A stretch of DNA of 64,000 nucleotides. Origin: an uncultured Gammaproteobacteria bacterium. GTDB lineage: Bacteria; Patescibacteriota; Microgenomatia; Levybacterales; GWA1-39-11. The notes under the pieces were generated by a model. It was not told where the DNA came from. It saw only the letters and a list, made by a program, of their open reading frames with translations, and did no database searches. Below, piece by piece: positions 768 to 39,223 of the stretch. The stretch covers positions 4,367 through 68,366 of the forward strand of contig CAZMSF010000002.1 in assembly GCA_964568885.1 (NCBI GenBank), in the 5' to 3' direction. Every line of letters starts with the position of its first letter. The stretch's first letter is position 1. Made by a program: the position numbers and the translations under genes.

Positions 768-2144
768 TTATTGAAAACAGCTAAAGGGGTACTTTGTGGA
801 TTTTTTGAAAATTCCTCCCCACTCAACCATTGTAAATCCTTGTCTTGCCGTATTTGTGATTGTGGGAGCCGTAACGCTTATGGGAGCATCAAGCGGTTCG
901 AAATAAAGGGTAACGCGGATTGAAGTTTGTGGTTTTGGTGTAATTGTTAGGGGCGAGATAGCATCAAGATTTGCAGTAGGAACAACTCCCACAAAATAAT
1001 ACGGTGCATCCGGTAAAACCCCCGTCCAGTATTCAGCAAATTGGCCCTCTTCTTTGTTGTTCAATCCCAGTTTTGGAAGAATTTTGGAAAGCAACGTTTT
1101 AATTTCATCTTTTTTAACCACGAATCCTTTGGTCGGTTTTTCTATTTTTTCGTCAGGAATTTCTGCCTCGTAGTAGAGATAATCAAAGTTTGTACTCCCT
1201 GAAAGTATTGTTCCATCGGGATGGGCAATTACATTCCACCCCCCGTTAGGATATGGAGGAATAGTAAGTTTTACCGGGCCGACGGGATTTACTGTTACGT
1301 TAACCGGAGTTGTTGTTGTTGGATACAAATAGATGGCGGGTTTGCAAAATGGTGAAAGCCAAGGGACGAGGAGATTATCTTGTTGGATTTGAAATGTCTT
1401 GAGCTGCAGATTGTCTTTGGCGCCTGCCTGTAAAGTGGGGGTCACGATATGTTGCTGTCCGCCGGTCGTGCTACCGGTCGGTAGTGCAGAGGTGTCGCAA
1501 TTTTTTATAAAGTCCGGAACGCCGGGGGAGTTAACATCTGAAAGTTTGAAGTATGCATCATACTGAGAGTCTTGGTCTCCGTAGCACGTAACCTCAGGCC
1601 CCCACATACCGCTGCACGTTGCCGGATGACAATTTTTCTTGCAGACATAAATGATTTCGTCATTTGGAATTGAGACGCAGTAAGGAACCGATTGGGGGCT
1701 TCCGATTTGGATAGGGGGAGGGGGAACGCTTTTCAGATATTTGTCTTTAGGCTCCGTTCTGCAATAGGGGGTTGCGTACTGGGCCGGAATGATATGGGTA
1801 TCTGAAGAATTGAGTACAATTGGCTGGCCGTTGTATTGTTGCCCTGAATCTTTTAAGTGCACATTTCCTTCCATGAGAATTGTATTTGTACGAAGGAGCC
1901 CGTATTCAGCGCCATTGAAAGTGAGTTTTTGTCCGTCTCCAGTTTGGGGTTTGCAATCGTTTCCGCTACCAGTATCGCAACATGAAAGAACCGCTCCGTT
2001 ACCATTGGGTCCCGTAGGGGCGGATTTATTGACCAGGGTGTTACTGACCAAAAAAATAGCAAGAAAAAGTAGCGCAAGAAGCATGAGAGGAGTAATAATG
2101 CCTCCATGAGAATAGCGGATAAAACGTCTTCTTTTCTTCGCCAT
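768..2144 (-). CDS. signal-anchored secreted Cys-rich protein, paralog 1 of a family sharing a ~200-aa C-terminal domain (KPAIYLYP...GGW...PDGT...YLYYE...PKPxT...GFTxVEWGG)
   Basis: ORF 768..2222. The likely start is the internal MAKKRRRF at 2142-2144, followed by a hydrophobic helix. The C-terminal ~200 aa align with ORFs 2943..3929, 4017..5039 and 42012..44249. Confidence 0.7.
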   Translation of the reverse strand: MAKKRRRFIRYSHGGIITPLMLLALLFLAIFLVSNTLVNKSAPTGPNGNGAVLSCCDTGSGNDCKPQTGDGQKLTFNGAEYGLLRTNTILMEGNVHLKDSGQQYNGQPIVLNSSDTHIIPAQYATPYCRTEPKDKYLKSVPPPPIQIGSPQSVPYCVSIPNDEIIYVCKKNCHPATCSGMWGPEVTCYGDQDSQYDAYFKLSDVNSPGVPDFIKNCDTSALPTGSTTGGQQHIVTPTLQAGAKDNLQLKTFQIQQDNLLVPWLSPFCKPAIYLYPTTTTPVNVTVNPVGPVKLTIPPYPNGGWNVIAHPDGTILSGSTNFDYLYYEAEIPDEKIEKPTKGFVVKKDEIKTLLSKILPKLGLNNKEEGQFAEYWTGVLPDAPYYFVGVVPTANLDAISPLTITPKPQTSIRVTLYFEPLDAPISVTAPTITNTARQGFTMVEWGGIFKKSTKYPFSCFQ

Positions 2145-2220
2145 ACATTTATTAAAGCACTTCGAAAATTGAAATACAAAATTGGTTGACTTATTTTGCA
2201 ATTTTTGAAACGATAGAGCC

Positions 2221-2841
2221 ATGGAGGAGATTATTGACAGGCTTGGATGGAAAAAAGCTGCGATAATTCTTGTGGGATTATCAATTCTTGGAATTCTCTT
2301 TGCGCTCCTCTCCTTTTCAAATTCGGAAAAACAAATTCAAGATGTAGGGGTTAAGGCAGGACAAAAGCAGCAAGGTGAATCTAGTACTTCAACAACGAGC
2401 AGTAACAATAACCTGCCCAATAGTGGGGGAACGGCACCTGCGCAGAACCTAAAAACATACACGACCACGTATTTCCAGATTTCATATCCCGAAAAATATA
2501 ATGGCGTTCCCTATACTGCGTCAAAAGGGGTCCTTGCAAATCTTAAATTAGAAAATCCCGATTCGACAAAGAAAATCGAAATTGTTGTTTTTGATTCGTC
2601 AATGAGTTTTACCAAGCTCTCACAACCATTTGAGGTATTTAAATATGCAAAAAGTTCTATAGGACTCAACGCACTGACCGGCACAATGTACAAGGGGAGT
2701 GTTGCGGGAACAGGAATTCGTGAGGTAGTTGTATTGGTTCCCAAAAACAGCACGACAATCCGGATAATGGCAACGTATCAGGGGAAAGAGGACGTGAATT
2801 TCGAAAACGAATTTAACAGTATTGTAAACAGCTTGAATTAA
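2221..2841 (+). CDS. hypothetical signal-anchored secreted protein
   Basis: 206-aa ORF with an N-terminal hydrophobic helix (AAIILVGLSILGILFALL) followed by a Ser/Thr/Asn-rich linker. It is divergent from the 768..2144 gene. Confidence 0.55.
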   Translation: MEEIIDRLGWKKAAIILVGLSILGILFALLSFSNSEKQIQDVGVKAGQKQQGESSTSTTSSNNNLPNSGGTAPAQNLKTYTTTYFQISYPEKYNGVPYTASKGVLANLKLENPDSTKKIEIVVFDSSMSFTKLSQPFEVFKYAKSSIGLNALTGTMYKGSVAGTGIREVVVLVPKNSTTIRIMATYQGKEDVNFENEFNSIVNSLN

Positions 2842-2942
2842 ACGACCCCTGAAAAAACCAGCTCTTCTTATTTCCCGATGACTCCTCCGCCCCAAGGGCA
2901 CTTGCCATATTATGGTGGCGCCCAAAAAGATGAGGGTCGTCG

Positions 2943-3929
2943 TTATCTTCCGATAACTCCTCCCCATTCGACAGCAGTAAAACCGGTTCTTTTTGGAGCC
3001 TCCGGCAAGATAAGCGAAGTCACTGTTTCATTATCCGCAAGAGGAGCAAAGTAAGCGATAAATTCAATCATGGTATCGGGCTTTGGCGAAATACTAACTT
3101 TATCAACACGCTCCTTTTCATCACGGTCCAATACCGAAACAAATATTCTATCGGTTTTTATGCTTTGGAGGCGTGGTATCCACCAATCCAAAAATTCTTG
3201 TTGCTCGTCAGTTCTTGTCAGTCCAAGTTTTGCGATAAATGCTAAAAGTTCTGTTTTTAGGTTTTGTTTATTCATTGCTATCCCTGCTTTCGGCCGATTC
3301 AAAGCTTGAGACTGCGTCTCGTAAAAAAGTTCACGGTATTGCTTGTTTTGATATTCCAAAGTGCCATCGGGATTTGCCAAAACATTTTTCCAGCCGCCCG
3401 TTGGGTAGAGGGGGTCGCTTATGAAAATATTGCCGGCGGTTTCAACCGAAACGTTAACACTTGTTGGTTTTTCGGGATACAAATAGATAACAGGCTTGCC
3501 AATGCAGTACCATCCATCTCCATCCTGCCCAAAAATTTGACACCAATTTGATTGATCAACTTGCGTGCACGACATGCCGGACGGGATGCCGGATTTTGAA
3601 TAGTCAATATCTTTACAAGAACCGCCCTCGCATTTGATAAGCCAGGCCACACACTGGCATTTGTCAGGATCCGCTTTTTTTGACATGTCGTGATTGCATG
3701 AGTCGGTTGCAGGGGTGGGTTTTGGTTGGAATGAGACATTCTTCAGTTGAATATTTTGTTTGCCGCCTCCTCCTTCGGTTTGGGCTTGTCCATATTCCTC
3801 TTTCGAGTCTGTTGCACTTTTGTTGTAAAGGGTTCCGCTTGTGAGGAGCACCCCAAAAGCAACGACGATAAAAAGAATTGGAACGATAACATTACCCTTC
3901 ATGAATTTTGAATTATATTTATGATTCAT
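2943..3929 (-). CDS. signal-anchored secreted Cys-rich protein, paralog 2 of the shared C-terminal domain family
   Basis: 328-aa ORF with an N-terminal TM helix, then a Cys-rich segment, then the C-terminal domain KPVIYLYPEKP...GGWKNVLANPDGTL...YRELFYE...LGLTRTDEQQEFLDWW...SISPKPDT...GFTAVEWGG. It is roughly 75-80% identical to the 4017..5039 product over this domain. Confidence 0.7.
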   Translation of the reverse strand: MNHKYNSKFMKGNVIVPILFIVVAFGVLLTSGTLYNKSATDSKEEYGQAQTEGGGGKQNIQLKNVSFQPKPTPATDSCNHDMSKKADPDKCQCVAWLIKCEGGSCKDIDYSKSGIPSGMSCTQVDQSNWCQIFGQDGDGWYCIGKPVIYLYPEKPTSVNVSVETAGNIFISDPLYPTGGWKNVLANPDGTLEYQNKQYRELFYETQSQALNRPKAGIAMNKQNLKTELLAFIAKLGLTRTDEQQEFLDWWIPRLQSIKTDRIFVSVLDRDEKERVDKVSISPKPDTMIEFIAYFAPLADNETVTSLILPEAPKRTGFTAVEWGGVIGR

Positions 3930-4016
3930 TTGCCAATGACGCCTCCCTCCTCCAGAGGACTAGGTATTTCCCTCCGAGAGGATTAGCTATTTTATAGCGG
4001 CACATACCGTCGCATT

Positions 4017-5039
4017 CTAATTTGTTGGGTCGGTGTCTACGACACCTCCCCATTCAATAGCGGTAAAACCTACTCGTTTCGGCGCCTCAGGTAAAACAAG
4101 AGGTTTGACAGTTTCATTGTCCAAGAGTGGAGCAAAGTACACAATAAATTGAATAAATGTATCCGGTTTTGGAGAAATGGAAACATTATCGACCCGGGCT
4201 TTTTCATCTTTTTCAAGAACTGAGACAAATATTCTGTCGGTTTTTAATGTTTGAAGTTTTGGTGTCCACCAATCCAAAAATTCCTGTTGCTCGTCCTTTC
4301 GCGTTAAGCCGAGTTTTTCGATAAAATCAAGAAGCTCTGTTTTTAGGTTTTGTTTATCAATAATCACTCCTGTCTTCGGCCGATTTATCGTTTGAGTGTT
4401 AGATTCGTAAAATAACTCTCTGTACTGCTTGTTTTGATATACGAGTGTGCCGTTGGGATGTGCCAATACATTCTTCCAGCCGCCGGTTGGATAGTGCGGG
4501 TCGCTTACGAAAATATTTTCTTCGGGTGTGACTTTTACATCAACAAGTATCGGTTGTTCCGGATAGAGATAAATAACAGGTTTTCCGATACAAAAAGTTC
4601 CATTCATGCCACCCGGGCATATAGAGCACCACCCGTTTTGGTCTACTTGTGCACAGGTGTACGTTTTAAAAGCGGAACCTGATTTGTCCAGATCAACCTT
4701 TACGCATTTCCCGTTTTCACAAGTCAAATGAAGGTCAGGACACGTACATTCGTCTCCAACGGGCTGACAGCTATCTGCAAAACACCCTGCTGAGGGAACG
4801 GGAGTCGGAGTCGGAGGTACAGGTGTAGGGGTTGAGAAATTTACTTTTGTCATTTGCAACCCTTTGGTATTTGAGGACTGCTGGTCGGCAACGGTATAGC
4901 TGACATTTTCTTCACCGGTAGATGACTTTGGGCCTTGGAAGAAACCGGTCGAGCCCATAAGCACAATAACCGCAAGTCCGGCAATAAAAATTCCAAGTGC
5001 GGAAAATCCTCTTTGGGAATTTAGGGTGCAAAACTTCAT
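4017..5039 (-). CDS. signal-anchored secreted Cys-rich protein, paralog 3 of the shared C-terminal domain family
   Basis: 340-aa ORF with an N-terminal TM helix, a Pro/Thr linker (PTPVPPTPTPVP), a Cys-rich module and the same C-terminal domain as 2943..3929. It is a tandem duplicate. Confidence 0.7.
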   Translation of the reverse strand: MKFCTLNSQRGFSALGIFIAGLAVIVLMGSTGFFQGPKSSTGEENVSYTVADQQSSNTKGLQMTKVNFSTPTPVPPTPTPVPSAGCFADSCQPVGDECTCPDLHLTCENGKCVKVDLDKSGSAFKTYTCAQVDQNGWCSICPGGMNGTFCIGKPVIYLYPEQPILVDVKVTPEENIFVSDPHYPTGGWKNVLAHPNGTLVYQNKQYRELFYESNTQTINRPKTGVIIDKQNLKTELLDFIEKLGLTRKDEQQEFLDWWTPKLQTLKTDRIFVSVLEKDEKARVDNVSISPKPDTFIQFIVYFAPLLDNETVKPLVLPEAPKRVGFTAIEWGGVVDTDPTN

Positions 5040-5081
5040 ATTGTTATTGTATTGTGTTTTTCAAAAACAGTCAAAGAAGAA

Positions 5082-5801
5082 CTATTTTTGGATAGCAGAA
5101 GTTGGGGAGAGGTGTTTGAGTCCGGGAGGAAGAGTGATAACGACCTGATTTTTGGTAAGGTTTGTGTGTTCGCCTTGTTTTGCGTAAAGAAAGCCCGTTA
5201 ATTGAGTTAGCTCAAGGGTCGTTGAGAGAACGGCAACTTTTAAGGGCTTTACCGTAAAGTTGATTTCGGCAATTTTTCCCGAACCTGCCAGTTCCTGCAT
5301 GCCGTCAGGAAGCTTGAGGGTTATTGTTTTTTCTCCAGGGGTTGGGTCATTGATATCGGGATTTATGAGTTTTAATGAATAACCGAGCGCCGAAGTATTG
5401 TCCTGGTAAGGCGTAATGGTTACGTTGTCAAGTAAATTCGGATTGTATTTTACAGAAATAACGACTCCGGAAATTTTCCGGGCGTCGGTGTTTATGATGA
5501 CATCAATTGTTGTTTTCTTGCCAGGCGTGCCAATGATGTTAACGGGTGTCAAGAGTAAGCTTCCATACAGTTCTTGTTTTGGCCCTTCGTCTTTCGCTGT
5601 TTTTGATAATTTCAGTTTTTGAGAATACAAAACTCCAAAGAGTATGCTTGCAAGAACAAGAAAAAGCATCCCGAAAAGTGCGATGGCAACTTTCTTGTTC
5701 TTGCGAATAGTGGAGGTTAATGATTTGAGAGTCAAGGGCTCACGCGATGGAGTTTCTTTTGTTTCAACTGGTTGATTTTGCACTTCGTTTTCCATATCCA
5801 T
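5082..5801 (-). CDS. hypothetical signal-anchored protein
   Basis: 239-aa ORF with a TM helix at about residues 40-60 (VAIALFGMLFLVLASILFGVLY). It lies 10 bp downstream of the 5812..8406 gene on the same strand, so the two are probably an operon. Confidence 0.55.
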   Translation of the reverse strand: MDMENEVQNQPVETKETPSREPLTLKSLTSTIRKNKKVAIALFGMLFLVLASILFGVLYSQKLKLSKTAKDEGPKQELYGSLLLTPVNIIGTPGKKTTIDVIINTDARKISGVVISVKYNPNLLDNVTITPYQDNTSALGYSLKLINPDINDPTPGEKTITLKLPDGMQELAGSGKIAEINFTVKPLKVAVLSTTLELTQLTGFLYAKQGEHTNLTKNQVVITLPPGLKHLSPTSAIQK

Positions 5802-5811
5802 TTATCGTACC

Positions 5812-8406
5812 TTATGGCGTACAGACATAGCAATTTGTTTGTGTGCCCGAGCCCAAGTCACAACCATTTCCTTCGCCTTTCCATCCCCAATATCCTGTTC
5901 CGCCTGGGTAGAAGCATTGCATGTTGGCCTCTGATGCGCTTCCGCACATTGAGTTTGCAGGATGTCCTACACAGCTTGAAGGAGGAGTATACGATGATGT
6001 TGGAGCCGGGGCCGTCGTAGTAGATGGTACGGGAGCAGTTGTTCCGCCACCGGGAGCAGGAGTAGTGGTAGTTGTGCTACCTCCCGGCCTCTTTGTGCAG
6101 CAGACATTCGGCCGTCCGTTTGTCTCGCTGCAAACTCTGTCTCCATTTGTTCCTCCGGGGCCTATTGGCGCATGGTCGTAACCTGCAAGACATTGTGTCC
6201 CATCCTGACACTCATTGTTGGTGAGTCCACCTGCAGCGTTGTAATAAGGACAGTCCGCTTGATAACCGCTTCCTCCGCCGCTACTGCCGGTAGGCGAAGG
6301 TGAGACATATGGGGTTGCACTCATGCATGCTGCGGTATTTTGTACATCAGTTTGAGACTGAGCGCACCAGCGGCCCGTTGCACAAAATTGTCCATTAGGA
6401 TTATCGGGAGGAAATACCTTACCTGAAGCTTCTTTATAGCATCCAAGCGTTCCACCGCATCCGCCTCCTGTAGGACATGCACACCCTACACCCCAATTGC
6501 CGAAATTTGCCGCAGAACAATTGTTTGAGGCACCCGGAGTTGGAGTGAAGGCCACCCCTCCTTTATATTGGCAGGTGTAACTGTTGGGATACAAGGGGTT
6601 GGGATTTGTGCACTCAAGGTTTTTATTCGGTTCACAACAATAGATTTTATTAGAATAGTCATTGGGATGACAAGTCTGCCCTTGATAGGCGGTACAATTT
6701 GCATCGGGTCCTACAGTTGGCGAAGGAGTAGTAGTGCCTCCTGTTGCCGGACACCAAGGGGGAGAAGAGCAGGTATTTCCTCCGCTTGGGACATAATCGA
6801 CATATCGTTGACTTGTTGACGGGTCGATATTTTGGCAGATGTATTTGTCTTTGTAGACACCGCCGCAGAATTCGCGCGCTGCTGCCTTTGTCGCGTCAAA
6901 AAGCTTTTCGTTACATGTGCCATTAACATATGACAAAACTCCGCCTTTTACTCCGGCGCATGGACCCGATGCTGGGCCGGGTGTTCCTCCGCCAGGAGAT
7001 GTTGTTCCTCCGCCTGGAGCCGGGGTGGAGGAGCTACCTCCAATGCTCGAGCCATAATACTGAGCATATTTGTCCGGGTCATAGCAGCATATTCCCCCGT
7101 TGCATTTGTCATTGCCATAATTATCGTGGCCTGATGCTTTGTAATCAACGGTATGTTTGTCTCCGTTCACGCCACAAGATGATAAGCATGCAAACGTGCC
7201 ATTGATATTGCCAACAGCGGTGCAACTGTTAGGATCCGAAGAAGGTGGGGGAGTACTTGCGGGTGGAGGTGTGGCACCAGCGGCAGCGTCACACCTCAGG
7301 GAGGAAGTATTGCATTTTTGTGAAGCACAAACAACATTTACAGGCAAACCTTGAGAAGCATAGTCCTCACAAAGAGCATTAGTACCCCCTTGCGAAGTGG
7401 AGACACAAGAACTGCTCCCTTTTTGACCTTTTACATTGCTAATGCAGAATTGATTTGCAGGACAGTCAGAGTGAGTTTTGCAGCTTTCACCTGAGGCTAA
7501 CGGTGCCTCGCATTTCAGTGTATAGGCATTGCATTTTTGTGAAGCGCAAACAATATTTACCGGTAGTCCCTGGGAAGCATAGTCCTCACAAAGAGCATTT
7601 TCCCCACCCACCCTAGATCCAACACAAGAGCTACTTCCTTTTTGACCTTTTACATTGCTAATGCAGAATTGATTTGCAGGACAGTCAGAGTGAGTTCTGC
7701 AGCTTTCATTTGAAGTAGGAGGTGTAGCAGGCGGGTTTTCGCATACATCAAGCGACTTATTACAGTAGCTCGAAGCACAGTGTTCGTTTTCAAAACAGGG
7801 TTCTCCCAATCCCTGCTGGTACTTACCACAGTATCCTATCATTCCAGCATCAGGTCCAGCTGTTTTTGCTCCGGGGATACAATACTGACCTGGGCTTGAG
7901 TAACAAGCGCCGGTGTAGCAAGTTTGTCCAACATCTTGTTTCGTTTGACATCGTTGAGCATCTCCTTTGCCGCCTCGATAGACAAAGCACTCATCTAAAT
8001 GGTCTTTGCATTGATTTATAGATAGTGAGCCACAATCTACCGGTTTACGGACACAATATCCACACCTTCCATAGCCTATATCTTGGATAACACATTGATT
8101 ATCAAAGCAGTTGTGTAGATTGGCCTGACCATAAGAAAGATAATTTCCATTTCTGGTCGATGTGCAAGTATTTAAATCGGACCCACAATATTCGTATTCA
8201 ATATAGCCTCCCAACTGAGAATTGTAAGAACCGATTTGTGCTCCCAAAACACCTTTTTGTTTAATGCCGGAATAACTATTATTTGCAGCATAAGCTACTC
8301 CCTTTGTGGAGTTTAGAAATGAGAGGAGTCCGTAGATAATTCCTATAGCCAATAAAAGGATGAATAGAGGTAAATATAATGCTTTCAGTTTAACGAATAA
8401 GTTCAT
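5812..8406 (-). CDS. large secreted Cys/Gly-rich low-complexity protein with internal 73-aa tandem repeat
   Basis: 864-aa ORF with an N-terminal TM/signal (LPLFILLLAIGIIYGLLSF). It is extremely Cys-, Gly-, Thr- and Pro-rich. Two near-identical 73-aa units (SC[RK]THSDCPANQFCISNVKGQKGSSSC...CEDYASQGLPVN[IV]VCASQKCN) are encoded at 7267-7704. Confidence 0.7.
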   Translation of the reverse strand: MNLFVKLKALYLPLFILLLAIGIIYGLLSFLNSTKGVAYAANNSYSGIKQKGVLGAQIGSYNSQLGGYIEYEYCGSDLNTCTSTRNGNYLSYGQANLHNCFDNQCVIQDIGYGRCGYCVRKPVDCGSLSINQCKDHLDECFVYRGGKGDAQRCQTKQDVGQTCYTGACYSSPGQYCIPGAKTAGPDAGMIGYCGKYQQGLGEPCFENEHCASSYCNKSLDVCENPPATPPTSNESCRTHSDCPANQFCISNVKGQKGSSSCVGSRVGGENALCEDYASQGLPVNIVCASQKCNAYTLKCEAPLASGESCKTHSDCPANQFCISNVKGQKGSSSCVSTSQGGTNALCEDYASQGLPVNVVCASQKCNTSSLRCDAAAGATPPPASTPPPSSDPNSCTAVGNINGTFACLSSCGVNGDKHTVDYKASGHDNYGNDKCNGGICCYDPDKYAQYYGSSIGGSSSTPAPGGGTTSPGGGTPGPASGPCAGVKGGVLSYVNGTCNEKLFDATKAAAREFCGGVYKDKYICQNIDPSTSQRYVDYVPSGGNTCSSPPWCPATGGTTTPSPTVGPDANCTAYQGQTCHPNDYSNKIYCCEPNKNLECTNPNPLYPNSYTCQYKGGVAFTPTPGASNNCSAANFGNWGVGCACPTGGGCGGTLGCYKEASGKVFPPDNPNGQFCATGRWCAQSQTDVQNTAACMSATPYVSPSPTGSSGGGSGYQADCPYYNAAGGLTNNECQDGTQCLAGYDHAPIGPGGTNGDRVCSETNGRPNVCCTKRPGGSTTTTTPAPGGGTTAPVPSTTTAPAPTSSYTPPSSCVGHPANSMCGSASEANMQCFYPGGTGYWGWKGEGNGCDLGSGTQTNCYVCTP
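7267..7704 (-). repeat. two tandem copies of a 219-bp coding repeat inside the 864-aa Cys-rich protein gene
   Basis: The DNA at about 7486-7704 and 7267-7485 is near-identical, for example the recurring gcatttttgtgaagc[ag]caaaca and gacagtcagagtgagtt[ct]tgcagctttca. It encodes two 73-aa protein repeats. Confidence 0.7.
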
Positions 8407-8451
8407 AAACCGGCTAATATAATCTCAGAATACGATGTTTTAAACTCAAAG

Positions 8452-8973
8452 TCAACAGCCCGTCGCAGCACCGTTGTAGGTTTTGTTAATTATGGCACCC
8501 GATGAGACGGTTATCTTCCAAGCTGCGTTTCCGAACCCGTCGTCGTTACTTAAAGTCAACGGATACGTTTGGGATGGTGGAACAAAAGGCTGAGAACCGA
8601 TGGTTTTTGTTGCGCTGGATAGTTCTACCGTTGCTCCTGTCGTACCTTCGACCTTTACGCTCCCCGTCATGTAGGGTGCTTTTCCTTGTTTGCATCCATC
8701 AAAAGTGACGATTACGCTCCATTCTGATGGAGGGCCTGAGGGAGTGGTGGTGCCTGTCGTGCCGGGGGTTCCGGATGTGCCACCCGGTGTGGGAGTGTCT
8801 ATGACGGAAGATGGCTCATTGCCGGAAAAAAGACTGCCGCCGCCACCTGCAAGCATGATGGCAAAAACAACAACGATTATGAAAAGAATAATATAGGAAG
8901 ATGATTGACCACGTTGGGAGACTAATGATTTATGGTTAATAGTTAATAGTTGATGGAAAAATTTAATAGGCAT
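8452..8973 (-). CDS. small signal-anchored Thr/Gly/Pro-rich secreted protein
   Basis: 173-aa ORF with the hydrophobic segment YIILFIIVVVFAIMLAGGGG followed by a TPTPGGTSGTPGTTGTTTPSGPP linker. Confidence 0.5.
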   Translation of the reverse strand: MPIKFFHQLLTINHKSLVSQRGQSSSYIILFIIVVVFAIMLAGGGGSLFSGNEPSSVIDTPTPGGTSGTPGTTGTTTPSGPPSEWSVIVTFDGCKQGKAPYMTGSVKVEGTTGATVELSSATKTIGSQPFVPPSQTYPLTLSNDDGFGNAAWKITVSSGAIINKTYNGAATGC

Positions 8974-8983
8974 ACATAATTAA

Positions 8984-9046
8984 GTATTAAGTATCACGGT
9001 TCGTATTGCAATTTGCAAAGTGAACTGAGCGATGTATTAAGTATCA
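8984..9046. promoter_or_regulatory. candidate operator: 13-bp direct repeat GTATTAAGTATCA (8984-8996 and 9034-9046) flanking a palindromic TTGCAATTTGCAA (about 9006-9019)
   Basis: Direct reading of the intergenic region upstream (minus sense) of the 8452..8973 gene. Confidence 0.3.
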
Positions 9047-9054
9047 AGTGGGTA

Positions 9055-9348
9055 TCAGTTCTGTGATGCTTCGAGGGTGGTGATTCTTTTTTCGTGGGCG
9101 GAAATTACTTTATCATTTCGTTCAAAGTGAAGTGTTGAAGCTACATTTTCTTCACGAATATCTACTAATTCTTTCAAAATCCTATCTTGGGTTGTTTGTA
9201 TTGTATCCAGCTTGTCATAAATTTGGTTTGATACGTCTTGAACTACTTGCTTCAGGTCGTCCTTTGTCGCAAAATTTGCTAGTTTTTGATCGAGGTAGGA
9301 TTTTGTTACAGGTTTGTCTTTTTTTTCTGCGGTTGTCACTTTTTTCAT
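9055..9348 (-). CDS. hypothetical small charged, possibly coiled-coil protein
   Basis: 97-aa ORF rich in K, E, D and Q with no TM segment. It is co-oriented with the surface-protein island. Confidence 0.4.
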   Translation of the reverse strand: MKKVTTAEKKDKPVTKSYLDQKLANFATKDDLKQVVQDVSNQIYDKLDTIQTTQDRILKELVDIREENVASTLHFERNDKVISAHEKRITTLEASQN

Positions 9349-9413
9349 AGAGATATCTAGAATATCACTTTGTGGTTAATCTTCAATAAGACAAACTACA
9401 ACAGTTCGTGAGG

Positions 9414-10343
9414 CTATTGCCCTGCATCATTGCAGATTTTTTGAGAGATATCTTTATATATTTGCTTGAGCTGAGTGGGGTCGGGAATTTCATAATATGT
9501 TGAAAGAGTAGGCTCTGTTGCGATTTTCCCCATCATAGTTCTCATGTCTGGTAAAAAGTATTCGTCTTGAGGGTCCCCAGGGACATAGAGTGCAATCGTA
9601 TATATTTTTATCCCCTTGTCTTTTATTTCTTTTGAAACGTCAGGGCTTTGGGTTGGGTCCTGGGAATTGGCAAAACATCTCAAGTTGGTAGGTGTTTGGT
9701 ATTGTCTGCCGCTTGCACAATCACGCGGGTTTGTTTCGGGAATGCCATCAGACAGGAAAATGAGCGCAAATTTCTGATTGGGAAATGTGGTTTGCGCTGC
9801 AAGGATTTTATCCCTCTCAAACAGGAACGCGGAACGCGTATTGGTTGCACCGGCCGCACGAAGGTTTTGAATCGCTTCCGGCATAGAACTTTTGGCATCT
9901 TTATATCGTGAGAATGGGACGTCTTCCTGAACAACAACAGCACCGTCGTCATTACTGCTGAAAGATGAGAGACCAATGACCGATTGGTCTGAAAGACTTT
10001 GGGTAAAGGTGGTAAGGGCGGATTTTAAGTTGTCAATTTTTGCACCCCTCATGGAACCCGAGCGGTCAACCAAAAGTCCAACTGCAACTTTGCTTGCACA
10101 TTCACGGAATTTGATGGTCTTGAGTTGCAAGTTGTTGCGGTTGATGCCGGGGGTTTCTTTTACTATTTCCAAGTCTCCAGTTTCTCCCGGGTCGGAAAGA
10201 GTCGAGCGCGGAGTAACACCGCGAGAAAGTAAGACCCCCATGCCAACTGCAAGGCCAATAAAAGCAAGGGTAAAAATTGTCCCCGGTCCCGTGAGATTAA
10301 TGCCAAATCCGCCTCCGCCTCGTCTTCTGTTATTGTTAGCCAT
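9414..10343 (-). CDS. von Willebrand factor A domain protein with conserved N-terminal Arg/Gly-rich signal-anchor module
   Basis: The N-terminus is MANNNRRRGGGGFGINLTGPGTIFTLAFIGLAVGMGVLLSRGVTPRSTLS. The vWA MIDAS motif is LLVDRSGSM (DxSxS), with a downstream T/D. Confidence 0.75.
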   Translation of the reverse strand: MANNNRRRGGGGFGINLTGPGTIFTLAFIGLAVGMGVLLSRGVTPRSTLSDPGETGDLEIVKETPGINRNNLQLKTIKFRECASKVAVGLLVDRSGSMRGAKIDNLKSALTTFTQSLSDQSVIGLSSFSSNDDGAVVVQEDVPFSRYKDAKSSMPEAIQNLRAAGATNTRSAFLFERDKILAAQTTFPNQKFALIFLSDGIPETNPRDCASGRQYQTPTNLRCFANSQDPTQSPDVSKEIKDKGIKIYTIALYVPGDPQDEYFLPDMRTMMGKIATEPTLSTYYEIPDPTQLKQIYKDISQKICNDAGQ

Positions 10344-10345
10344 AA

Positions 10346-11239
10346 TTATAATTGTATAGTAGTGCAGCCTTCACTGATATCTCCAACTTGATCTCCGTCG
10401 TGAAGGATGAACTGTGCGCGGTATGCATGTCCTGTCTCAAGGCCCAAACTGTCTACCTTCCAAATGATTTCCGCGCCAAAAAATGGTTCTTGGCGCCTTG
10501 CCGAATTTGCAAATTTCACATTGGAATTAGGGGGGTAAGGGTCTGCGCCGGGTCCCAAATCCAAATCATTTGGGTTTGGCATTACGGCTGCTGCGCCCAA
10601 AGGTTTCCATGCCCCATACACCTCGTCGGGTTTGTGCGGGGTGCCGCCGTTTTGAGCATCTCCCGATTTATTATTTGGGTCCGAGGTAATATCGCTTAAG
10701 AAAAGGGCAGGGTACCAAGGGAAATTATTCGCATCTTTTTGAGTTTCATCGCCAACATTGGGATTTACCACGTGGTCTTTTGAGCTCGTTGAAGGAGAGA
10801 CGTTCCCAGCGCCAAGAGTTATTGGCCACTCATCTTGGTAAAAAACTTTAATAGCTCCGCCTTTTACAACCGGTGTTCCGGGGTCGGGGTTGATTGCCCA
10901 AAGGATATATGGCTCGGGACTTCCCTTTATTGCATCATCTCCGCAATCAAACGTCGGGGGAATAACTACTTTCATTTTGAGGGTTCGAAGCTGCAAATTA
11001 GATTTTTGAGGCTCAGTTTGGTTGGTGTCTATCTGGTATGTGTTTTTGTCGTTGAGTCCTGAGAGTGTCGAGCGGGGAGTTACACCCCGGGACATGAGTA
11101 TTCCCATGCCAAGAGCAATTCCGATGAAAGCAATGGTAAAAACAGTCCCGGGACCTGTAAGGTTGATGCCAAAGCCCATTCCTCCCGCGCTTCGTTTTTT
11201 TTCCTTTGCCATACCTATAAGTTTAGAATTACATTTCAA
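10346..11239 (-). CDS. hypothetical secreted protein sharing the N-terminal signal-anchor module of the adjacent vWA protein
   Basis: The N-terminus MAKEKKRSAGGMGFGINLTGPGTVFTIAFIGIALGMGILMSRGVTPRSTLS is nearly identical to that of 9414..10343 over about 45 aa. The remainder is unrelated. There is a 2-bp gap to the vWA gene. Confidence 0.65.
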   Translation of the reverse strand: MKCNSKLIGMAKEKKRSAGGMGFGINLTGPGTVFTIAFIGIALGMGILMSRGVTPRSTLSGLNDKNTYQIDTNQTEPQKSNLQLRTLKMKVVIPPTFDCGDDAIKGSPEPYILWAINPDPGTPVVKGGAIKVFYQDEWPITLGAGNVSPSTSSKDHVVNPNVGDETQKDANNFPWYPALFLSDITSDPNNKSGDAQNGGTPHKPDEVYGAWKPLGAAAVMPNPNDLDLGPGADPYPPNSNVKFANSARRQEPFFGAEIIWKVDSLGLETGHAYRAQFILHDGDQVGDISEGCTTIQL

Positions 11240-19109: not shown

Positions 19110-20222
19110 CTATCTTTGGAATTTTGGTGTTAGGACATTTTCGGTATTAAGCAGGCCATATTTTGACAGGAGTGAGGACAAGATAGGAGAGCGCGTTGCG
19201 TACAAAAGTTTCTTTGGGAATTTTTCAGCGACCAAATTCTCTACCTCATGAAATCCTAAAAGATACGAAGCATCCTTTGGGAAGCCACCGGGCGCAGAGG
19301 TGTCGGAGAGTCCGCGTTTGACTCTATATGTCATGACAAATGCACGCTGTGGGGTAAGAGTTTCTGAGAGTGAATCAAAAATCTCACGAAAACTTTTATG
19401 CAAAAGCCTGACTGCTTTTATCCGCGAGAAGTACATTTCAAATGCACTCGGCGTTATTTTTCGCGTCATCACTTCGTTGTAGACGGCAAGACCTTCGCCG
19501 TACAGATGCTGGTTACCATATTTGGAAAGCTCCGAAAGAATCGAAGACCCGCGCCGGGCATTCTCTGCTTGAAGTACGTGGCTTTCAATTTCATGAATAA
19601 CCAGTCTGTCAACATTGCACTCAAAACGCTTTATATCACACCCAATATTTACCGATTGCCTTCCGACATTTATGATATGTGGCGAAAAAGCATCAATATT
19701 GACGTCGAATCCATTAATACTATATTTGTTCAACACCATTTCAAAGCGCTCTTTTATCTTTCCCGCATTCTGCATCCGGTGCGTAATATGCATCGTAAAT
19801 TCAACTTTGGGAGTATTGGTGAGCAGAAGGTCGAGTCTGTCGGTTCCCCAATCAAATAGCTTATGAGCATTATCTGAAAATTTATCCGTACCTATTGAGC
19901 TTTTCGTCAAAAAGAGATTTTTCTGATCATCAAGAAATTCCAGAAAGTACTCTTTCAATTCGTCCGGCAACAAAAGCGTATCTATCTCCGATTTAAATCC
20001 GTCGATTATTTTGGGGATATCTTTAAACTCCCTTTTTTTATAAATATATTGGGGATTATATGTGCTTGAATTAAAAAATTTTTCCAGCTCCTCTTTGTAG
20101 TTGAGCGGAGTCAATGATTCGGTACCTATATGAAGAGACTTTTTTATTTCTAAAAATTTCTTTGCAATTTCTTCGAGCTGTTGTTTTACCTTTTCCTGGA
20201 TTACACTTTCTTCTTTTGCCAT
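19110..20222 (-). CDS. DUF1704-family putative zinc metallopeptidase (QEGLA-motif / MATCAP-like)
   Basis: HExxH motif VIHEIESHVLQ and a GEGLAVY motif resembling the QEGLA signature. No TM segment. Confidence 0.5.
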   Translation of the reverse strand: MAKEESVIQEKVKQQLEEIAKKFLEIKKSLHIGTESLTPLNYKEELEKFFNSSTYNPQYIYKKREFKDIPKIIDGFKSEIDTLLLPDELKEYFLEFLDDQKNLFLTKSSIGTDKFSDNAHKLFDWGTDRLDLLLTNTPKVEFTMHITHRMQNAGKIKERFEMVLNKYSINGFDVNIDAFSPHIINVGRQSVNIGCDIKRFECNVDRLVIHEIESHVLQAENARRGSSILSELSKYGNQHLYGEGLAVYNEVMTRKITPSAFEMYFSRIKAVRLLHKSFREIFDSLSETLTPQRAFVMTYRVKRGLSDTSAPGGFPKDASYLLGFHEVENLVAEKFPKKLLYATRSPILSSLLSKYGLLNTENVLTPKFQR

Positions 20223-35107: not shown

Positions 35108-36034
35108 ATGGAAGTGAAGGAGAAGAAAATATCGGCCAAAACGGTAATAGTCGCGTCATTTCTTGTGGACGTCCTTGACATCGTTCTCTCCGTTTTTGTA
35201 TCGGTTGTGACAGGGAGCGTTATCATGTTGACCGAAGCACTCGAAGGGGTATCCGACCTCACCTCTTCCGGGTTACTATTGATTGGACTTAAACGTTCTA
35301 CTCAAAAAGCTGACAGGTCACATCCATTTGGGTACGGAAGGGAAATTTATTTTTGGACTCTCTTGGCGGCGCTTGTAATGTTTGGGGTGACCTCAACGGT
35401 TTCAATTTATTTTGGCTGGCAGCGGATAGTGAATCCTCACCCCGTTGAAAACCTGTATCTTGCTCAAATAGTCCTTCTCATCGCGTTTTTTTCAAATGGG
35501 TACGCATTTTTCCTGAGTTACAAAAGGCTACTTAAGAAAAGGAGTTTTAATCAAATTGTAAAAATATTCTATAAGTCATCCCTTGTTGAGACAAAGACCA
35601 CCTTCATTCTGGATCTTATGGGAACGATAGCTTCATTTTTAGGTATGGTAGCTCTTGTGATTTACAGACTTACCGGGGATGTGCGCTTCGATGGAATAGG
35701 CGCTGTAGTTATTGGAGTTGCGCTTTCTTTTCTTGCGCTTCTATTGGTGATGGGAATTCGCGACCTGTTGGTTGGCAGAAGTGCTTCTCGAGAAACCGAG
35801 GAAAAAATAAAAAAGGCGGCACTTATGGTTGAGGAGGTAAATGATGTGCTCGATTTGAAAACGCTGCATGTCGGGTCCGAAAAATTGTTGGTCAATCTTG
35901 AGGTGCATATGAAAAACAATTTGGATACCGATGAAATAGAAAAATTGATGGATGAAATAAAGGAAAGAATACAACGCGAAGTACCCTCGGTAAAATATAT
36001 CCAGGTGGAGCTGGAAACCCCCGATAAGAAGTAG
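35108..36034 (+). CDS. cation diffusion facilitator (CDF) family metal efflux transporter
   Basis: Six TM helices plus a C-terminal cytoplasmic domain, with CDF-typical HD/D sites. Confidence 0.85.
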   Translation: MEVKEKKISAKTVIVASFLVDVLDIVLSVFVSVVTGSVIMLTEALEGVSDLTSSGLLLIGLKRSTQKADRSHPFGYGREIYFWTLLAALVMFGVTSTVSIYFGWQRIVNPHPVENLYLAQIVLLIAFFSNGYAFFLSYKRLLKKRSFNQIVKIFYKSSLVETKTTFILDLMGTIASFLGMVALVIYRLTGDVRFDGIGAVVIGVALSFLALLLVMGIRDLLVGRSASRETEEKIKKAALMVEEVNDVLDLKTLHVGSEKLLVNLEVHMKNNLDTDEIEKLMDEIKERIQREVPSVKYIQVELETPDKK

Positions 36035-36193
36035 CTCTTTGAGGCTAAATCCTGTATTTTTGTCAACGCTCCAACCCCTTCCAAAAGTTGCCTAGATGTG
36101 CTATACTACAAAGTTGTTTTTAAGCCCATAGTCTGAGCTTTTAAGTTCATACTGAATTTGTTTTGTTTGGCTTTTTGCCGAACATAATTTTGA

Positions 36194-36221
36194 AATACTC
36201 CCTCGCATGAGTATTTTTTTT
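36194..36221 (+). terminator. putative intrinsic terminator AATACTC-loop-GAGTATT followed by T8
   Basis: Hairpin at 36194-36215 and a T-run to 36221, in the 440-bp non-coding spacer downstream of the CDF gene. Confidence 0.4.
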
Positions 36222-36688: not shown

Positions 36689-39223
36689 TTGACCGCTAAC
36701 CCCGAATCCACCACGAAGGTGGGTACAACTGAAGGAGAGGTTGACCTCGCCGAACGGAATGTCGTTTGGCTCCGCGAGATCGGAGTCGAGCACATCTCAA
36801 TCGCCGGCGGTAAAGGTGCCAACCTCGGCGAGATGATGCGCACCGGAGCACCCGTGCCGAACGCTTGGGTTGCAACGGCTCACGCACACGCAGCCTTCGT
36901 CAGGAGTCTGCCGCAGGCTGTCATCGACAAGATGGTGGCCCTCAACGACGCAGACCGCAAGAACGTCACCGCCTTCGCAGTCCTCGTAGAGGAGATCAAG
37001 ACCGGTATCGAAGAACACGAGCTTCCGCTCGAGCTTCGGACGCTCTTCCTCCGTTCCTACGAGATGATGAGGCGGGAGGACGGCAGCCCGGAAGTGGTTG
37101 CCGTTCGGAGTGCAGCCCGTCCTGAGGACGGTGCTGACGCATCCTTCGCGGGTCAGCAGGGAACCTTCACGGACATCCGTGGAGGCGAGAATGTCCTGCA
37201 CGCAATCGTTGCGTGCTGGGGCACATGCTACGAACTCCGCTCGGTAATCTACCGGGCAGAGCTTCGGGAGCAGACCCTCGAAAGCGCAGCCGCAGAACCC
37301 GATGAAGTCCGCAAGCGCGAGCTTCTCGAGTTCGCCGACTGCCTCCGCCACGAGAACTTCGCGATGGCAGTCGTCGTCCAGAAGATGGTCCAGTCCTACG
37401 TGTCTGGCGTCATGCTGATGGTCGACGCTGCGACAAGCGATCCCGCGTTCATCACCGTCCAGGCCGCGTTTGGCCTCGGGCAGGGTGTGGTCGACGGGAC
37501 GATGGAAGCGGAGACGTTCAAGTTCCGCAAGGACGACGAACTGACGCTCGTTGAGGGGCCCATCCGCGTCGCACAGCCTGAGATGTATGTCCGGAACCCG
37601 GACAGCACCGGTTCTATCGAGGACGCCACCATCAAGGTGGCGACACCTCCGTACCTCATCAACGCACCCAAGCTCACGAGGGGCCAAGCACGAGCCATTG
37701 CCCGGTACGGCATGGACATCGAACGGCATTACGGAGCCCCGCAGGATATCGAGTGGGCCGCGGTCCAGGAAAAGACCGACTGGCTCGACTTCTTCATCCT
37801 GCAGACCCGACCCATCACCGTGAAGCCCATCCTCCTCAGTGGAACCCCCGCTCCGACAGAGTCGACCCTCCTTGGGACCGGCGCTGCCGCGAGTCCGGGA
37901 GTCGGCGTGGGGCGGATCCGTATCGTGACCGGCGACCCCGGCAAGGACGCCTCTATCCTGGAGATGGTTCAGCCCGGCGACGTTCTCGTCACCGAGATGA
38001 CCACTCCGGACTGGGTTCCTGCCATGAAGCGGGCGGCAGCCATCATTACCCATCAGGGTAGTGTGACGTGCCACGCCGCTATCGTCAGCAGGGAGAAAGG
38101 GATCCCCTGCATCGTCGCGGTACACAACGCGCTCGAACTCCCCGATGGGGAACTCGTGACGGTCAACGCAGCGACCGGCCAGATCTGGCTCGGCGAATGC
38201 CAAGACACCATCGCATGGTGGGCGGCAGAAGTCGAGTACATGAAGAAGATGGCCCAGAACGTCGAAACCGTCACTCACGTCTGCATCAACGGCGCATCGC
38301 CGCTCGATGTGCAGAAGGCCCTTTCCGAGGGCAAGCGGCCGCGCGGCAACACGCTCGCGCGGGCGGAGTTCTTCTACCTTGACGTCTTCAACCAGCACCC
38401 ACGGGCGCTTCTTGACGACGGCAGGCGGGAGGAAGCCGTTCAGACCATGGTCGACGGCTTCAGCGAACACGCGAACCTTATGTGGCCCGAAACGGCCACA
38501 GTTCGCACCAACGACCTCAAGCCTCACGAGCTTGGCAAGCTCGGTAACGGGCGGGGTTGGGACTACGAGAAGCCCAACATGTCCGAGAACCCGCAAGACG
38601 GGTATCGCGGCGTGGCACGCTACCTCGACCCCAACAATCCCGGCGAGCAGGAAGCTTTCCGCATGGAGGTCGAGGCAATCGCCAAGACGTTCCTTGCTGG
38701 CTGGACCAACATCCAGCTGATGCTGCCGTACGTCCGGGCGGTCGAAGAGTTGACGGAGTGCCTTGCGCTCATCGACTCCATCCTCGAGCCTCTCGGCGTC
38801 AAGCGTGGCGGCGAGGACGGACTCCGGGTCATCATGATGGTTGAGCTGCCTGAAAACGCACTCAACCTCGATGCCTACATCGACGAGGGCATTGATGGCG
38901 TTTCCCTGGGCTCCAACGACATGGGGTCCAAGGTGCACGGCCTTGACCGCGACTGGAAGGGTCGCGCCAAGTACGCCGCCATCGAAGTCGGACCGTCGAT
39001 GCTCAAGCTCTACCAGATGGTAGGCGAGGTTGCCCATCGGCGCGGCCTCAAGTACATCGGGTTCTGTGGGCAGGGCGTTGCGCTCTTCCCCGAACTCGCC
39101 GGCAAGCTCGTCGGCTGGCACTACACGCACATCGGTTGCTCGCCCGACTCGTTCGAGGCGACACTGATCAATACGTACAACGCCGAGTTGCGGCTTGGCA
39201 TCAGGGCCCACAAGGCCGCTTAG
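36689..39223 (+). CDS. ppsA: phosphoenolpyruvate synthase-like enzyme (pyruvate, water dikinase family)
   Basis: N-terminal PPDK_N/ATP-grasp segment ISIAGGKGANLGEMM…VPNAWVATAHA. Central phosphohistidine swivel motif HQGSVTCHAAIVSREKGIPCIVAV (compare E. coli PpsA GGRTCHAAIIARELGIP). C-terminal PEP-utilising TIM barrel VIMMVELPENALNLDAYIDEGIDGVSLGSNDMGS…DRD. The start is TTG 36689 or GTG 36716. The 832-aa minus-strand ORF 36797..39295 is a GC artifact. Confidence 0.8.
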   Translation: MTANPESTTKVGTTEGEVDLAERNVVWLREIGVEHISIAGGKGANLGEMMRTGAPVPNAWVATAHAHAAFVRSLPQAVIDKMVALNDADRKNVTAFAVLVEEIKTGIEEHELPLELRTLFLRSYEMMRREDGSPEVVAVRSAARPEDGADASFAGQQGTFTDIRGGENVLHAIVACWGTCYELRSVIYRAELREQTLESAAAEPDEVRKRELLEFADCLRHENFAMAVVVQKMVQSYVSGVMLMVDAATSDPAFITVQAAFGLGQGVVDGTMEAETFKFRKDDELTLVEGPIRVAQPEMYVRNPDSTGSIEDATIKVATPPYLINAPKLTRGQARAIARYGMDIERHYGAPQDIEWAAVQEKTDWLDFFILQTRPITVKPILLSGTPAPTESTLLGTGAAASPGVGVGRIRIVTGDPGKDASILEMVQPGDVLVTEMTTPDWVPAMKRAAAIITHQGSVTCHAAIVSREKGIPCIVAVHNALELPDGELVTVNAATGQIWLGECQDTIAWWAAEVEYMKKMAQNVETVTHVCINGASPLDVQKALSEGKRPRGNTLARAEFFYLDVFNQHPRALLDDGRREEAVQTMVDGFSEHANLMWPETATVRTNDLKPHELGKLGNGRGWDYEKPNMSENPQDGYRGVARYLDPNNPGEQEAFRMEVEAIAKTFLAGWTNIQLMLPYVRAVEELTECLALIDSILEPLGVKRGGEDGLRVIMMVELPENALNLDAYIDEGIDGVSLGSNDMGSKVHGLDRDWKGRAKYAAIEVGPSMLKLYQMVGEVAHRRGLKYIGFCGQGVALFPELAGKLVGWHYTHIGCSPDSFEATLINTYNAELRLGIRAHKAA

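Follow-up and report, generated by a model that had tools for sequence, protein, structure and literature searches.

The window analysed here, a stretch of 64,000 nucleotides of contig CAZMSF010000002.1, harbors on its minus strand an island of surface-protein genes adjoining the ribosomal gene rpsB. The first two genes of this island code for proteins with a nearly identical N-terminal leader module, which is followed in both by a spacer and by a short motif centered on Leu-Gln-Leu (hereafter the LQL motif). The gene nearest to rpsB is named DUF-X here, for its domain of unknown function; its neighbor codes for a protein with a vWA domain (coordinates in Table 1). The vWA start codon lies 2 bp past the DUF-X stop codon, so the two genes probably form one operon. 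The most likely start of DUF-X is the ATG at 11212 (MAKEKK...), because the 288-aa orthologues begin at MAKEKK, while the TTG at 11239 would only be the mechanical start of the open reading frame (ORF). A 288-aa protein present on public contigs (P0002) is 100% identical to DUF-X and occurs in groundwater and wastewater metagenomes of ENA and JGI.

The vWA protein matches the VWA model of Pfam (PF00092; E 2.2e-16, 61 bits against a cut-off of 23.8), and a Pfam scan at E <= 0.1 returned vWA models alone, plus the related CobT vWA model below its threshold. In the metal-ion-dependent adhesion site DRSGSM, residues D93, S97 and M98 are invariant among 35 relatives and S95 is kept in at least 90% of them; AlphaFold2 models the domain as alternating strands and helices. 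DUF-X has no match in Pfam or NCBIfam. Its model reaches a predicted local distance difference test (pLDDT) score above 90 across residues 100-288, a Foldseek search of this model against PDB gave nothing with E < 0.1, and the C-terminus of the protein carries the pattern HDGD...GD..CTT. A homologue search with full-length DUF-X retrieved 48 proteins. Matches to the relatives in Verrucomicrobia, Acidobacteria, Gemmatimonadetes and other phyla begin at residue ~100-121, and both leader and motif are absent from them.

The initial annotation had described the N-termini of the two proteins as almost identical and everything after them as different, and both statements are borne out: BLASTP aligns the proteins with 45/81 identities (E 3e-25) and finds nothing significant past residue ~80, and 33 of the 39 residues of the core GFGINLTGPGT...SRGVTPRSTLS are identical. 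The module had also been said to be conserved at the DNA level. This does not hold beyond the identity that the protein sequence forces, as the modules share 74% of their nucleotides and 41% of their third codon positions, and 21 of the 33 identical residues are encoded by different codons. The similarity is thus held at the protein level. AlphaFold2 places a helix at residues 21-41 of DUF-X and 22-40 of the vWA protein.

Origin of the shared leader module

Every vWA orthologue found keeps the module, as seen in the loci L005, L006 and L007 and in the proteins P0042-47, P0059 and P0074, and it persists on vWA proteins down to 42% overall identity (P0059 and P0074). Between the window vWA protein and P0059, for example, the transmembrane (TM) segment is 79% identical and the post-TM segment SRGVTPRSTLS 91% identical, while the vWA domain falls to 31%. 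The sequence LSDPGETGD[LI]E that follows the module is also kept in vWA relatives with other N-termini (P0076 and P0086). The TM helix of the module has a GxxxGxG pattern (FIGLAVGMGVLL), which together with its strong conservation suggests that the vWA-type helix may also make a specific contact in the membrane.

On DUF-X, the module is present only in orthologues at least 72% identical to the window protein (P0002-P0006 and L005). The orthologues that are at most 61% identical (P0007-P0037) carry a generic leader, e.g. MKGNILVPLLFVIIAFAVLLTSGAMVNKSATNP, and the generic leader of DUF-X in other genomes is nearly the same as that of the window product encoded at 2943. In the genus-level relatives L006 and L007, DUF-X (59-60% identical) has a KGQILMPLLF...NKSATNP leader and is found ~6 kb away, where the island meets glyA, the gene order being rpsB / vWA with module / 8452-like / Cys-rich / cohesin-like / IYLYP paralogues / DUF-X with generic leader / glyA. 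In the window, L005 and L041, the order starts with rpsB / DUF-X with module / vWA with module, and of the five genomes of the species group that were examined, four have DUF-X placed immediately after rpsB and before vWA. The DUF-X modules are 82-90% identical to the vWA modules of their own clade, as compared to 69-77% to the L006 and L007 modules. An exhaustive profile search of leaders, described below, found the module on vWA and DUF-X proteins only.

These comparisons strongly support the view that the module is the vWA protein's own leader and that the ancestral copy is the one on vWA. DUF-X very probably took its leader over from the vWA lineage, since distant relatives keep the module on vWA while their DUF-X has a generic leader elsewhere. 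In the ancestor of the species group, the DUF-X gene would have lost its generic leader, moved to the head of the island and taken a copy of the vWA leader. The take-over is old, since identity at third positions between the paralogous modules (0.41-0.44) lies in the same range as between orthologues. Taken alone, the duplicated module is therefore an ordinary case of old leader take-over between neighboring genes, and as it occurs in two gene families only, the pattern named in the initial annotation as that of a local partial duplication, it does not qualify as a general targeting signal. It shows that leaders are exchanged as cassettes between neighboring surface-protein genes; that the join of such cassettes falls after the LQL motif is strongly supported.

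A recent local tandem duplication, or ongoing gene conversion, could explain the module without any selection on the leader itself, and two observations would fit it. DUF-X and vWA are adjacent and 2 bp apart, and in L041 (8395-9520) the leaders of both share the derived residues FIAIAIG and SRGITPKS (34/39 identical, 87%), which are absent from the window and L005. However, third-position identity between the modules is no higher than between species, and it is just 44% in the L041 leaders too. Within the window and L005, the two genes are not more alike than between genomes, and long tracts of identical DNA between the leaders are absent in all three genomes examined. Moreover, identity in the module stays at 79-91%, as against 31% in the vWA domain. 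A recent event is consequently very improbable, and the derived residues shared in L041 could reflect either an old gene conversion or a co-evolution of the two helices, in what is a small sample.

The LQL motif across protein families

The strict pattern of the motif (N[LI]Q[LM][KRT][TNK]-type) occurs five times in the 49 window proteins (17,689 aa), against 0.03 expected, the mean of 2000 within-protein shuffles whose maximum was 2. A six-frame scan of the whole 64 kb detected the LQL-type pattern nowhere outside the five island ORFs. Besides DUF-X and vWA, these are the genes starting at 2943, 4017 and 768, in whose products the initial annotation had reported a recurring N[LI]QLK-type motif; all three are real genes of the island, and the excess over chance that it had left to be checked is thus confirmed. 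As the strict pattern was defined after the sequences had been seen, conservation in orthologues provides the independent test, and there the motif is conserved in three domain families, DUF-X, vWA and IYLYP, each of which was collected by its C-terminal domain and independently of the leader.

In the DUF-X family (31 homologues, 36-85% identity), Q74 and L75 are invariant and L73 is kept in at least 90%, within a spacer that is otherwise unalignable. In the vWA family (35 sequences, 31-90% identity), L72, Q73, L74 and T76 are invariant, and mean pairwise identity is 0.70 in the motif as against 0.38 in the domain, 0.28 in the TM segment and 0.18 in the spacer. The IYLYP family was collected with the window 2943 protein and comprises 590 hits. 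Among its anchored members, 90 of 110 have LQ[LIM] no more than 60 residues past the anchor, compared to 2.1 expected from shuffling. The family includes leaders of a second class (class B) without [KR]G, of the form ...S[KR]IAS..K[DN]SLQLxTFxP, with a spacing of ~17-20.

A profile built from 23 leaders was searched exhaustively against 1.84 billion representative proteins. At E <= 1e-3 there were 117 hits, including 110 that the DUF-X search had not retrieved; LQ[LM] is carried by 96 of these 110, at residue ~50-95. A Pfam scan of 80 leader proteins identified 36 vWA, 2 GH16, 2 CHAP and 1 M57 domains, the rest having no known domain. Over 143 non-redundant leaders, the consensus reads [KR]-x-[NST]-L(98%)-Q(100%)-L(97%)-x-T(82%)-[LIF](95%)-x-F(75%), with a weakly conserved hydrophobic stretch 11-14 residues upstream of the motif. 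In these leaders, LQL follows the end of the hydrophobic segment at a median distance of 30 residues (10th-90th percentiles 28-33), a figure that, like the frequency of [KR]G, is biased by the preference of a profile search for its query's own features. Only the domain-selected sets are unbiased in this respect, i.e. the IYLYP set and the DUF-X homologues chosen by C-terminal domain only, in which the spacing ranges over 25-35 residues (n=32). The median length of the uncharged run is 23 residues (10th-90th percentiles 19-26; 226 leaders), and a Pro/Thr-rich linker follows the motif in the 4017 product and 24 other leaders.

The two window leaders are thus, as strongly supported by these sequence comparisons, variants of one large leader family of surface proteins in Patescibacteria (Levybacteria-like). 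The family layout, equally well supported, consists of a K/R-rich start, often with [KR]G, ~23 uncharged residues, 25-35 spacer residues of low conservation and the invariant L-Q-L-x-T-[LIF]-x-F, to which a Pro/Thr linker or the functional domain is joined. The same motif, at a fixed distance from the anchor and once per protein, is found in the three families as well as on GH16, CHAP and M57 proteins. The shared targeting or processing signal proposed in the initial annotation therefore fits the LQL motif, which is general and beyond chance, but not the 45-aa module.

The motif does not seem to belong to the domains that follow it. In the AlphaFold2 models, pLDDT is below 50 at residues 68-75 of the vWA protein, where the motif lies, and ~65-69 in the motif of DUF-X, whose LQL residues are modeled as coil. 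In the 4017 product, a Pro/Thr linker intervenes between motif and domain, which separates the two. In the 768 product, an extra domain stands between anchor and motif, which lies at residue 272, 24 residues before the IYLYP domain; a 713-aa protein of L009 (7841-9982) similarly has an extra domain between anchor and motif, the latter at residue 480. In both, the motif stays a short distance upstream of a C-terminal IYLYP-type domain. A further variant is P0242, a homologue of the 2943 product in which a lipoprotein signal (LLVGC) replaces the TM anchor and NLQFKNFKV lies 25 residues past the Cys. No C-terminal anchor was detected in 214 LQ-motif proteins. Together, models and sequences give strong support to a motif lying outside the downstream domains. 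Two candidate explanations were rejected on this basis: LQL as the first strand of the downstream domain, in view of the low AlphaFold2 confidence and the Pro/Thr linkers that follow, and a translational-pause or arrest peptide one ribosome-tunnel length past the TM segment, since the motifs at residues 272 and 480 are far from any TM segment.

It could also be supposed that there is no special signal at all, the leader being an ordinary Sec cassette spread by common descent and recombination among paralogues, and LQL a folding or structural element such as a hairpin stalk. Exchange of leaders between genes is clear, the examined loci yielded no partner enzyme, and the DUF-X model predicts short strands at 59-61 and 80-82 around the motif. 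Descent alone, however, would not hold three residues at 97-100% beside a spacer at 18% and domains at 31-38%; the motif survives a change of anchor type and the insertion of a whole domain, and AlphaFold2 models it outside both domains. This explanation is accordingly rated improbable, whereas it is likely, from conservation and position, that LQL is a functional recognition motif of some kind.

Neither leader nor motif has a match in Pfam or NCBIfam, and the leader profile matched PDB sequences only at E >= 0.16, to assorted N-terminal helices. A literature search on sorting signals of Patescibacteria and the candidate phyla radiation (CPR), class III signal peptides, vWA pilins and Levybacteria surface proteins gave no description of an LQL leader and, apart from the general biology of CPR pili, nothing of relevance. 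The element is thus real, widespread in the lineage and, as far as we found, undescribed in the searchable literature. An extreme rarity of the leader had been suggested by a single fragment retrieved with an 85-aa query, short queries being missed by the word index of the homologue search, and was overturned by the full-length and exhaustive searches. A DNA pattern for NLQLKTxKF gave 96 stretches in metagenomes, 6 of which are real leaders and the rest AT-rich chance matches.

The surface-protein island and its genome

The island corresponds to window positions 768-11239 (Table 1). It is bounded on one side by rpsB (11361, plus strand) and on the other by glyA, as seen on longer contigs of the same species, and its end near glyA recurs across distantly related genomes. 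In distant relatives (L039/L040, L044 and the contig of P0192), too, a vWA gene with an LQL leader divergently adjoins rpsB, and in L044 vWA is the sole Pfam-annotated surface-protein gene between rpsB and glyA. It looks as if the vWA gene were the ancestral resident of the rpsB site, around which the island grew. The 768 gene probably starts at the MAKKRRR codon at 2144, and orthologues of its product are 458 aa long. Orthologues of the 8452 product occupy the same island position in L006, L007 and L042. Apparent counterparts of the cohesin-domain protein, recognised by similar size, position and N-terminus only, lie at the same place of these three islands. L044 has a Pfam cohesin-domain gene ~9 kb from the vWA gene, and Pfam detected no cohesin near the vWA gene of L039.

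Table 1. Coordinates of the island genes, leader modules, LQL motifs and other features of the window
Feature	Position	Strand	Description
DUF-X gene	10346..11212	-	288 aa; leader, spacer, ~190-aa domain of unknown function
DUF-X leader module	11060..11212	-	residues 1-51; K/R-rich start, GMGFGINLTGPGT, TM helix VFTIAFIGIALGMGILM, SRGVTPRSTLS
DUF-X LQL motif	10973..10999	-	NLQLRTLKM, residues 72-80
vWA protein gene	9414..10343	-	309 aa; PF00092
vWA leader module	10194..10343	-	residues 1-50; RRRGGGG, FGINLTGPGT, TM helix IFTLAFIGLAVGMGVLL, SRGVTPRSTLS
vWA LQL motif	10107..10133	-	NLQLKTIKF, residues 71-79
vWA domain proper	9432..10100	-	residues 82-304, between invariant C82 and C304; pLDDT 85-98
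173-aa island protein gene	8452..8973	-	[KR]G-TM-GGGG leader; no LQL motif
Cys-rich surface protein gene	5812..8406	-	864 aa
Tandem duplication in the Cys-rich protein gene	7286..7713	-	219 bp (73 aa), 81-93% identical
Cohesin-domain protein gene	5082..5801	-	membrane-anchored; PF00963 Cohesin, E 9e-6, 26.4 bits (cut-off 24.1); no LQL motif
IYLYP-family paralogue	4017..5039	-	leader QRGFSALGIFIAGLAVIVLMG; GLQMTKVNF at 4836-4862, then Pro/Thr linker
IYLYP-family gene	2943..3929	-	generic leader (KGNVIVPILFIVVAFGVLLTSG...NKSATD...); NIQLKNVSF at 3729-3755
IYLYP-family gene	768..2222	-	extra Cys-rich domain between anchor and motif; NLQLKTFQI at 1386-1412
MATCAP-like gene	19110..20222	-	metallocarboxypeptidase-like domain, PF08014, E 1e-23
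Pyruvate-phosphate-dikinase/PEP-synthase-like gene	36689..39223	+	long spurious antisense ORF at 36797-39295

The tandem duplication in the Cys-rich protein is a copy-number polymorphism between strains, as the protein has 791 aa on the same-species contig L001, exactly one repeat fewer, and 864 aa on L002 and L003. Outside the island, the region 36000-40000 has a GC content of 56%, compared to ~43% elsewhere in the window, and may have been acquired horizontally; it includes the pyruvate-phosphate-dikinase/PEP-synthase-like gene. A MATCAP domain (formerly DUF1704) is encoded by this small-genome bacterium and also on the same-species contigs L001-L004. No tRNA, rRNA or other Rfam family was detected at gathering score in the 64 kb.

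The closest genome records (L005-L010; CAYPEN01, CAZAJO01 and others) are titled 'uncultured Gammaproteobacteria bacterium'. We infer that this title is wrong because EF-Ts is short (just 150 aa), and because of the gene content and the relatives, which belong to Levybacteria and Patescibacteria. IYLYP homologues 51-55% identical to the 2943 product (P0199 and P0227) come from sources named 'Candidatus Levybacteria' and 'Levyibacteriota', and the leader-bearing locus L011 carries the label 'Patescibacteria group'.

Export route, possible roles of the motif and comparison with known signals

The initial annotation had stated that the leader is not a canonical Sec, Tat, lipobox, type IV prepilin or sortase signal. 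This holds up for Tat, lipobox and sortase signals and, with high probability, for prepilin signals; a signal anchor of the Sec type does fit, as the n-regions (RRR and KKR) are basic and are followed by an uncharged stretch of TM length. From these features, a Sec-type signal anchor is the most likely export route. That Sec export is in use follows from the ordinary cleavable signal peptides of other window proteins. A Tat signal was rejected because the Arg pair is not conserved: the vWA protein has RRRGGGGF and DUF-X KKRSAGG, and the orthologues have KRG, RKRG or KKSGG. Neither module has a Cys that could form a lipobox. Sortase substrates were rejected as well, since none of the 214 LQ-motif proteins has a C-terminal LPXTG-like motif with a hydrophobic stretch and basic tail behind it; a chance LPxT-like tetrapeptide occurs in three of them, which have no hydrophobic tail, and one other has a hydrophobic C-terminus without the motif.

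The prepilin case requires more attention, as the leaders might be pilin-like class III signals in which [KR]G is the site of a prepilin peptidase, the proteins being modular pilins or pseudopilins extracted and displayed by a type IV filament machine. Of 143 leaders, 93 have [KRH]G beside the start of the helix and 132 have some Gly there, other N-terminal anchors of the same loci are without [KR]G, conservation is higher in the leader than in the domain, a trait of pilins too, and the weak top PDB matches include several pilin N-termini (E 0.28-3.7). Moreover, type IV pili are widespread in CPR bacteria (PMC6744442). Against this, no prepilin model (TIGR02532 or PF07963) was hit among 80 leaders (NCBIfam at E <= 0.05, Pfam at E <= 0.001), nor was a TadE/G-like domain (PF07811 or PF13400) found in the vWA protein (Pfam at E <= 0.1) or the 80 relatives, and the canonical pilin motif G[FM]T[LI][IL]E is present in no real gene of the window and the loci. 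Glu+5 and Phe+1 are absent in most leaders, position +5 being Leu, Pro or Ile in most of them. The vWA-type module of the window has 11 polar residues between the Gly run and the helix, the helix is predicted to span just ~20 residues before Gly/Pro, the Gly-less class B leaders and the lipobox variant both keep LQL, and the cargo includes ordinary enzymes. A pilin-like function of the leaders is thus quite improbable.

We propose instead that the leader would insert via Sec and the signal recognition particle with its N-terminus inside and would hold the protein on the cytoplasmic membrane, while the LQL element would be exposed and act as a short linear motif that one partner recognises in all these proteins. 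A short linear motif is suggested because the element is invariant, unstructured in the models, present once per protein at a fixed distance, N-terminal to the domains and attached to unrelated cargo. In the preferred though tentative reading, a protease would cut at LQL and free the domain from the anchor or from an upstream pro-region, so that LQL would be a site of maturation or release. Cleavage is preferred because the Gln is absolutely invariant and because the motif is single-copy and lies at the boundary between anchor or pro-region and cargo.

Docking is doubtful when taken by itself and still nearly as likely as cleavage. LQLxT-x-F would in this case stay uncut and attach, in the form of an extended strand, to a scaffold outside the cytoplasm that all these proteins share (the membrane-anchored cohesin-domain protein of the island, the wall or an S-layer, for example), thereby bringing different enzymes and adhesins together. 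Such binding would agree with the contiguous conserved footprint of 9-11 residues, which has hydrophobic residues on both faces, with the diversity of the cargo (vWA, GH16, CHAP and M57) and with the low confidence of the AlphaFold2 monomer models, as expected for a partner-dependent motif. It would also agree with the presence of a cohesin-domain protein in the island, of apparent counterparts in L006, L007 and L042 and of a Pfam cohesin in L044; the window protein is, speculatively, a candidate for the shared partner. On the other hand, the proteins are already anchored in the membrane and a second tether seems redundant, an invariance of 100% is unusual for a Gln in a docking peptide, and L039 has no Pfam cohesin near its vWA gene.

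For the picture as a whole, i.e. leader take-over, a leader family and LQL as a recognition motif, we estimate a probability of about 0.6. The narrower proposal, that LQLxT-[LIF]-x-F ~30 residues outside the anchor is a previously unrecognised sorting or maturation signal of Levybacteria/Microgenomates, read by a dedicated enzyme or receptor, is more tentative. Several points weigh against this picture, beside the bias of the profile search. The mechanism is deduced from sequence patterns. No recurrent peptidase or transpeptidase, nor any other co-located candidate for a dedicated enzyme, was detected within 10 kb on either side of the matches in the examined neighborhoods, RseP being nearby only as a member of the usual housekeeping cluster rpsB-tsf-frr. 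The spacing in the IYLYP family is bimodal (~17-20 and ~29-32), and some of its members have degenerate motifs, e.g. LHM and VQM. The conserved xSG, xGG and SRG at the helix end are compatible with a -3/-1 signal peptidase site, and the 'anchor' may therefore be a long cleavable signal peptide with the conserved Gly at the hydrophobic end as its -1 residue. Finally, the relocation of DUF-X was reconstructed from a few genomes, and L042 has the module on DUF-X yet no vWA gene within 8 kb.

Patescibacteria represent a large share of bacterial diversity and are mostly uncultivated, and little is known of how their proteins are directed to the surface and presented there. Surface structures are believed to let them live on or alongside other cells (PMC6744442). 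If the proposal is true, the release of adhesins and lytic enzymes (vWA, CHAP, GH16 and M57), or their display on the surface, would be governed by the LQL signal; these bacteria, with their very small genomes and possible dependence on a host, would likely use such cargo on other cells. The leader gives a simple rule by which the surface proteome of these bacteria can be listed from sequence, and a handle for phylogenetic profiling towards the partner, while the invariant Gln within a 9-residue footprint is a concrete target for metaproteomics and peptide-binding tests.

Among known systems, Sec signal anchors of type II topology and the long signal peptides of Gram-positive bacteria are similar in their basic n-region, their 19-26 uncharged residues and the lack of a C-terminal anchor. 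The LQL leader differs from Sec anchors in being conserved as a family across unrelated cargo, with an invariant 8-residue motif at a fixed distance outside the membrane, and its conservation in the vWA subfamily exceeds that of the cargo domain. Class III prepilins, modular pilins and TadG-like vWA proteins also have basic residues and a Gly before a conserved hydrophobic helix, and vWA domains are known to occur on pilin-like N-termini. Unlike these, most LQL leaders have no Glu+5, their helix is short, they match no prepilin or TadE/G model of NCBIfam or Pfam, and the motif is also found on Gly-less leaders and on a lipoprotein.

The RseA/DegS/RseP type of system, in which single-pass proteins with the N-terminus inside are processed at site 1 and site 2, offers a lead only. 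As in the LQL proteins, a single N-terminal anchor carries an ectodomain on the outer side, and cleavage may take place some tens of residues away from the membrane; a cut at LQL would leave a stub that could be cleared by a site-2 protease such as the neighboring RseP. However, the examined loci gave no site-1 protease, the LQL cargo consists of enzymes and adhesins rather than anti-sigma factors, and the position of RseP is explained by the rpsB-tsf-frr cluster. The cohesin-dockerin system is similar in that a cohesin-domain protein is encoded in the island together with several tagged enzymes and adhesins, whereas the LQL tag is a 9-residue strand, not a Ca-binding dockerin of ~70 residues, and the island has no dockerin.

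The C-terminal tripartite signals comprise LPXTG/sortase, PEP-CTERM/exosortase, PGF-CTERM/archaeosortase and GlyGly-CTERM/rhombosortase. Like the LQL leader, they combine an invariant short motif, a TM helix and a basic cluster, once each on unrelated proteins of one lineage. The LQL leader is mirrored to the N-terminus, 25-35 residues separate its motif from the helix, where the C-terminal signals have the two side by side, and the LQL proteins have no LPXTG-type C-terminus. Recognition of LPXTG and of PEP-CTERM began with a recurring pattern of motif plus anchor and in both cases led to a dedicated enzyme; the LQL leader shows the same statistical signature.

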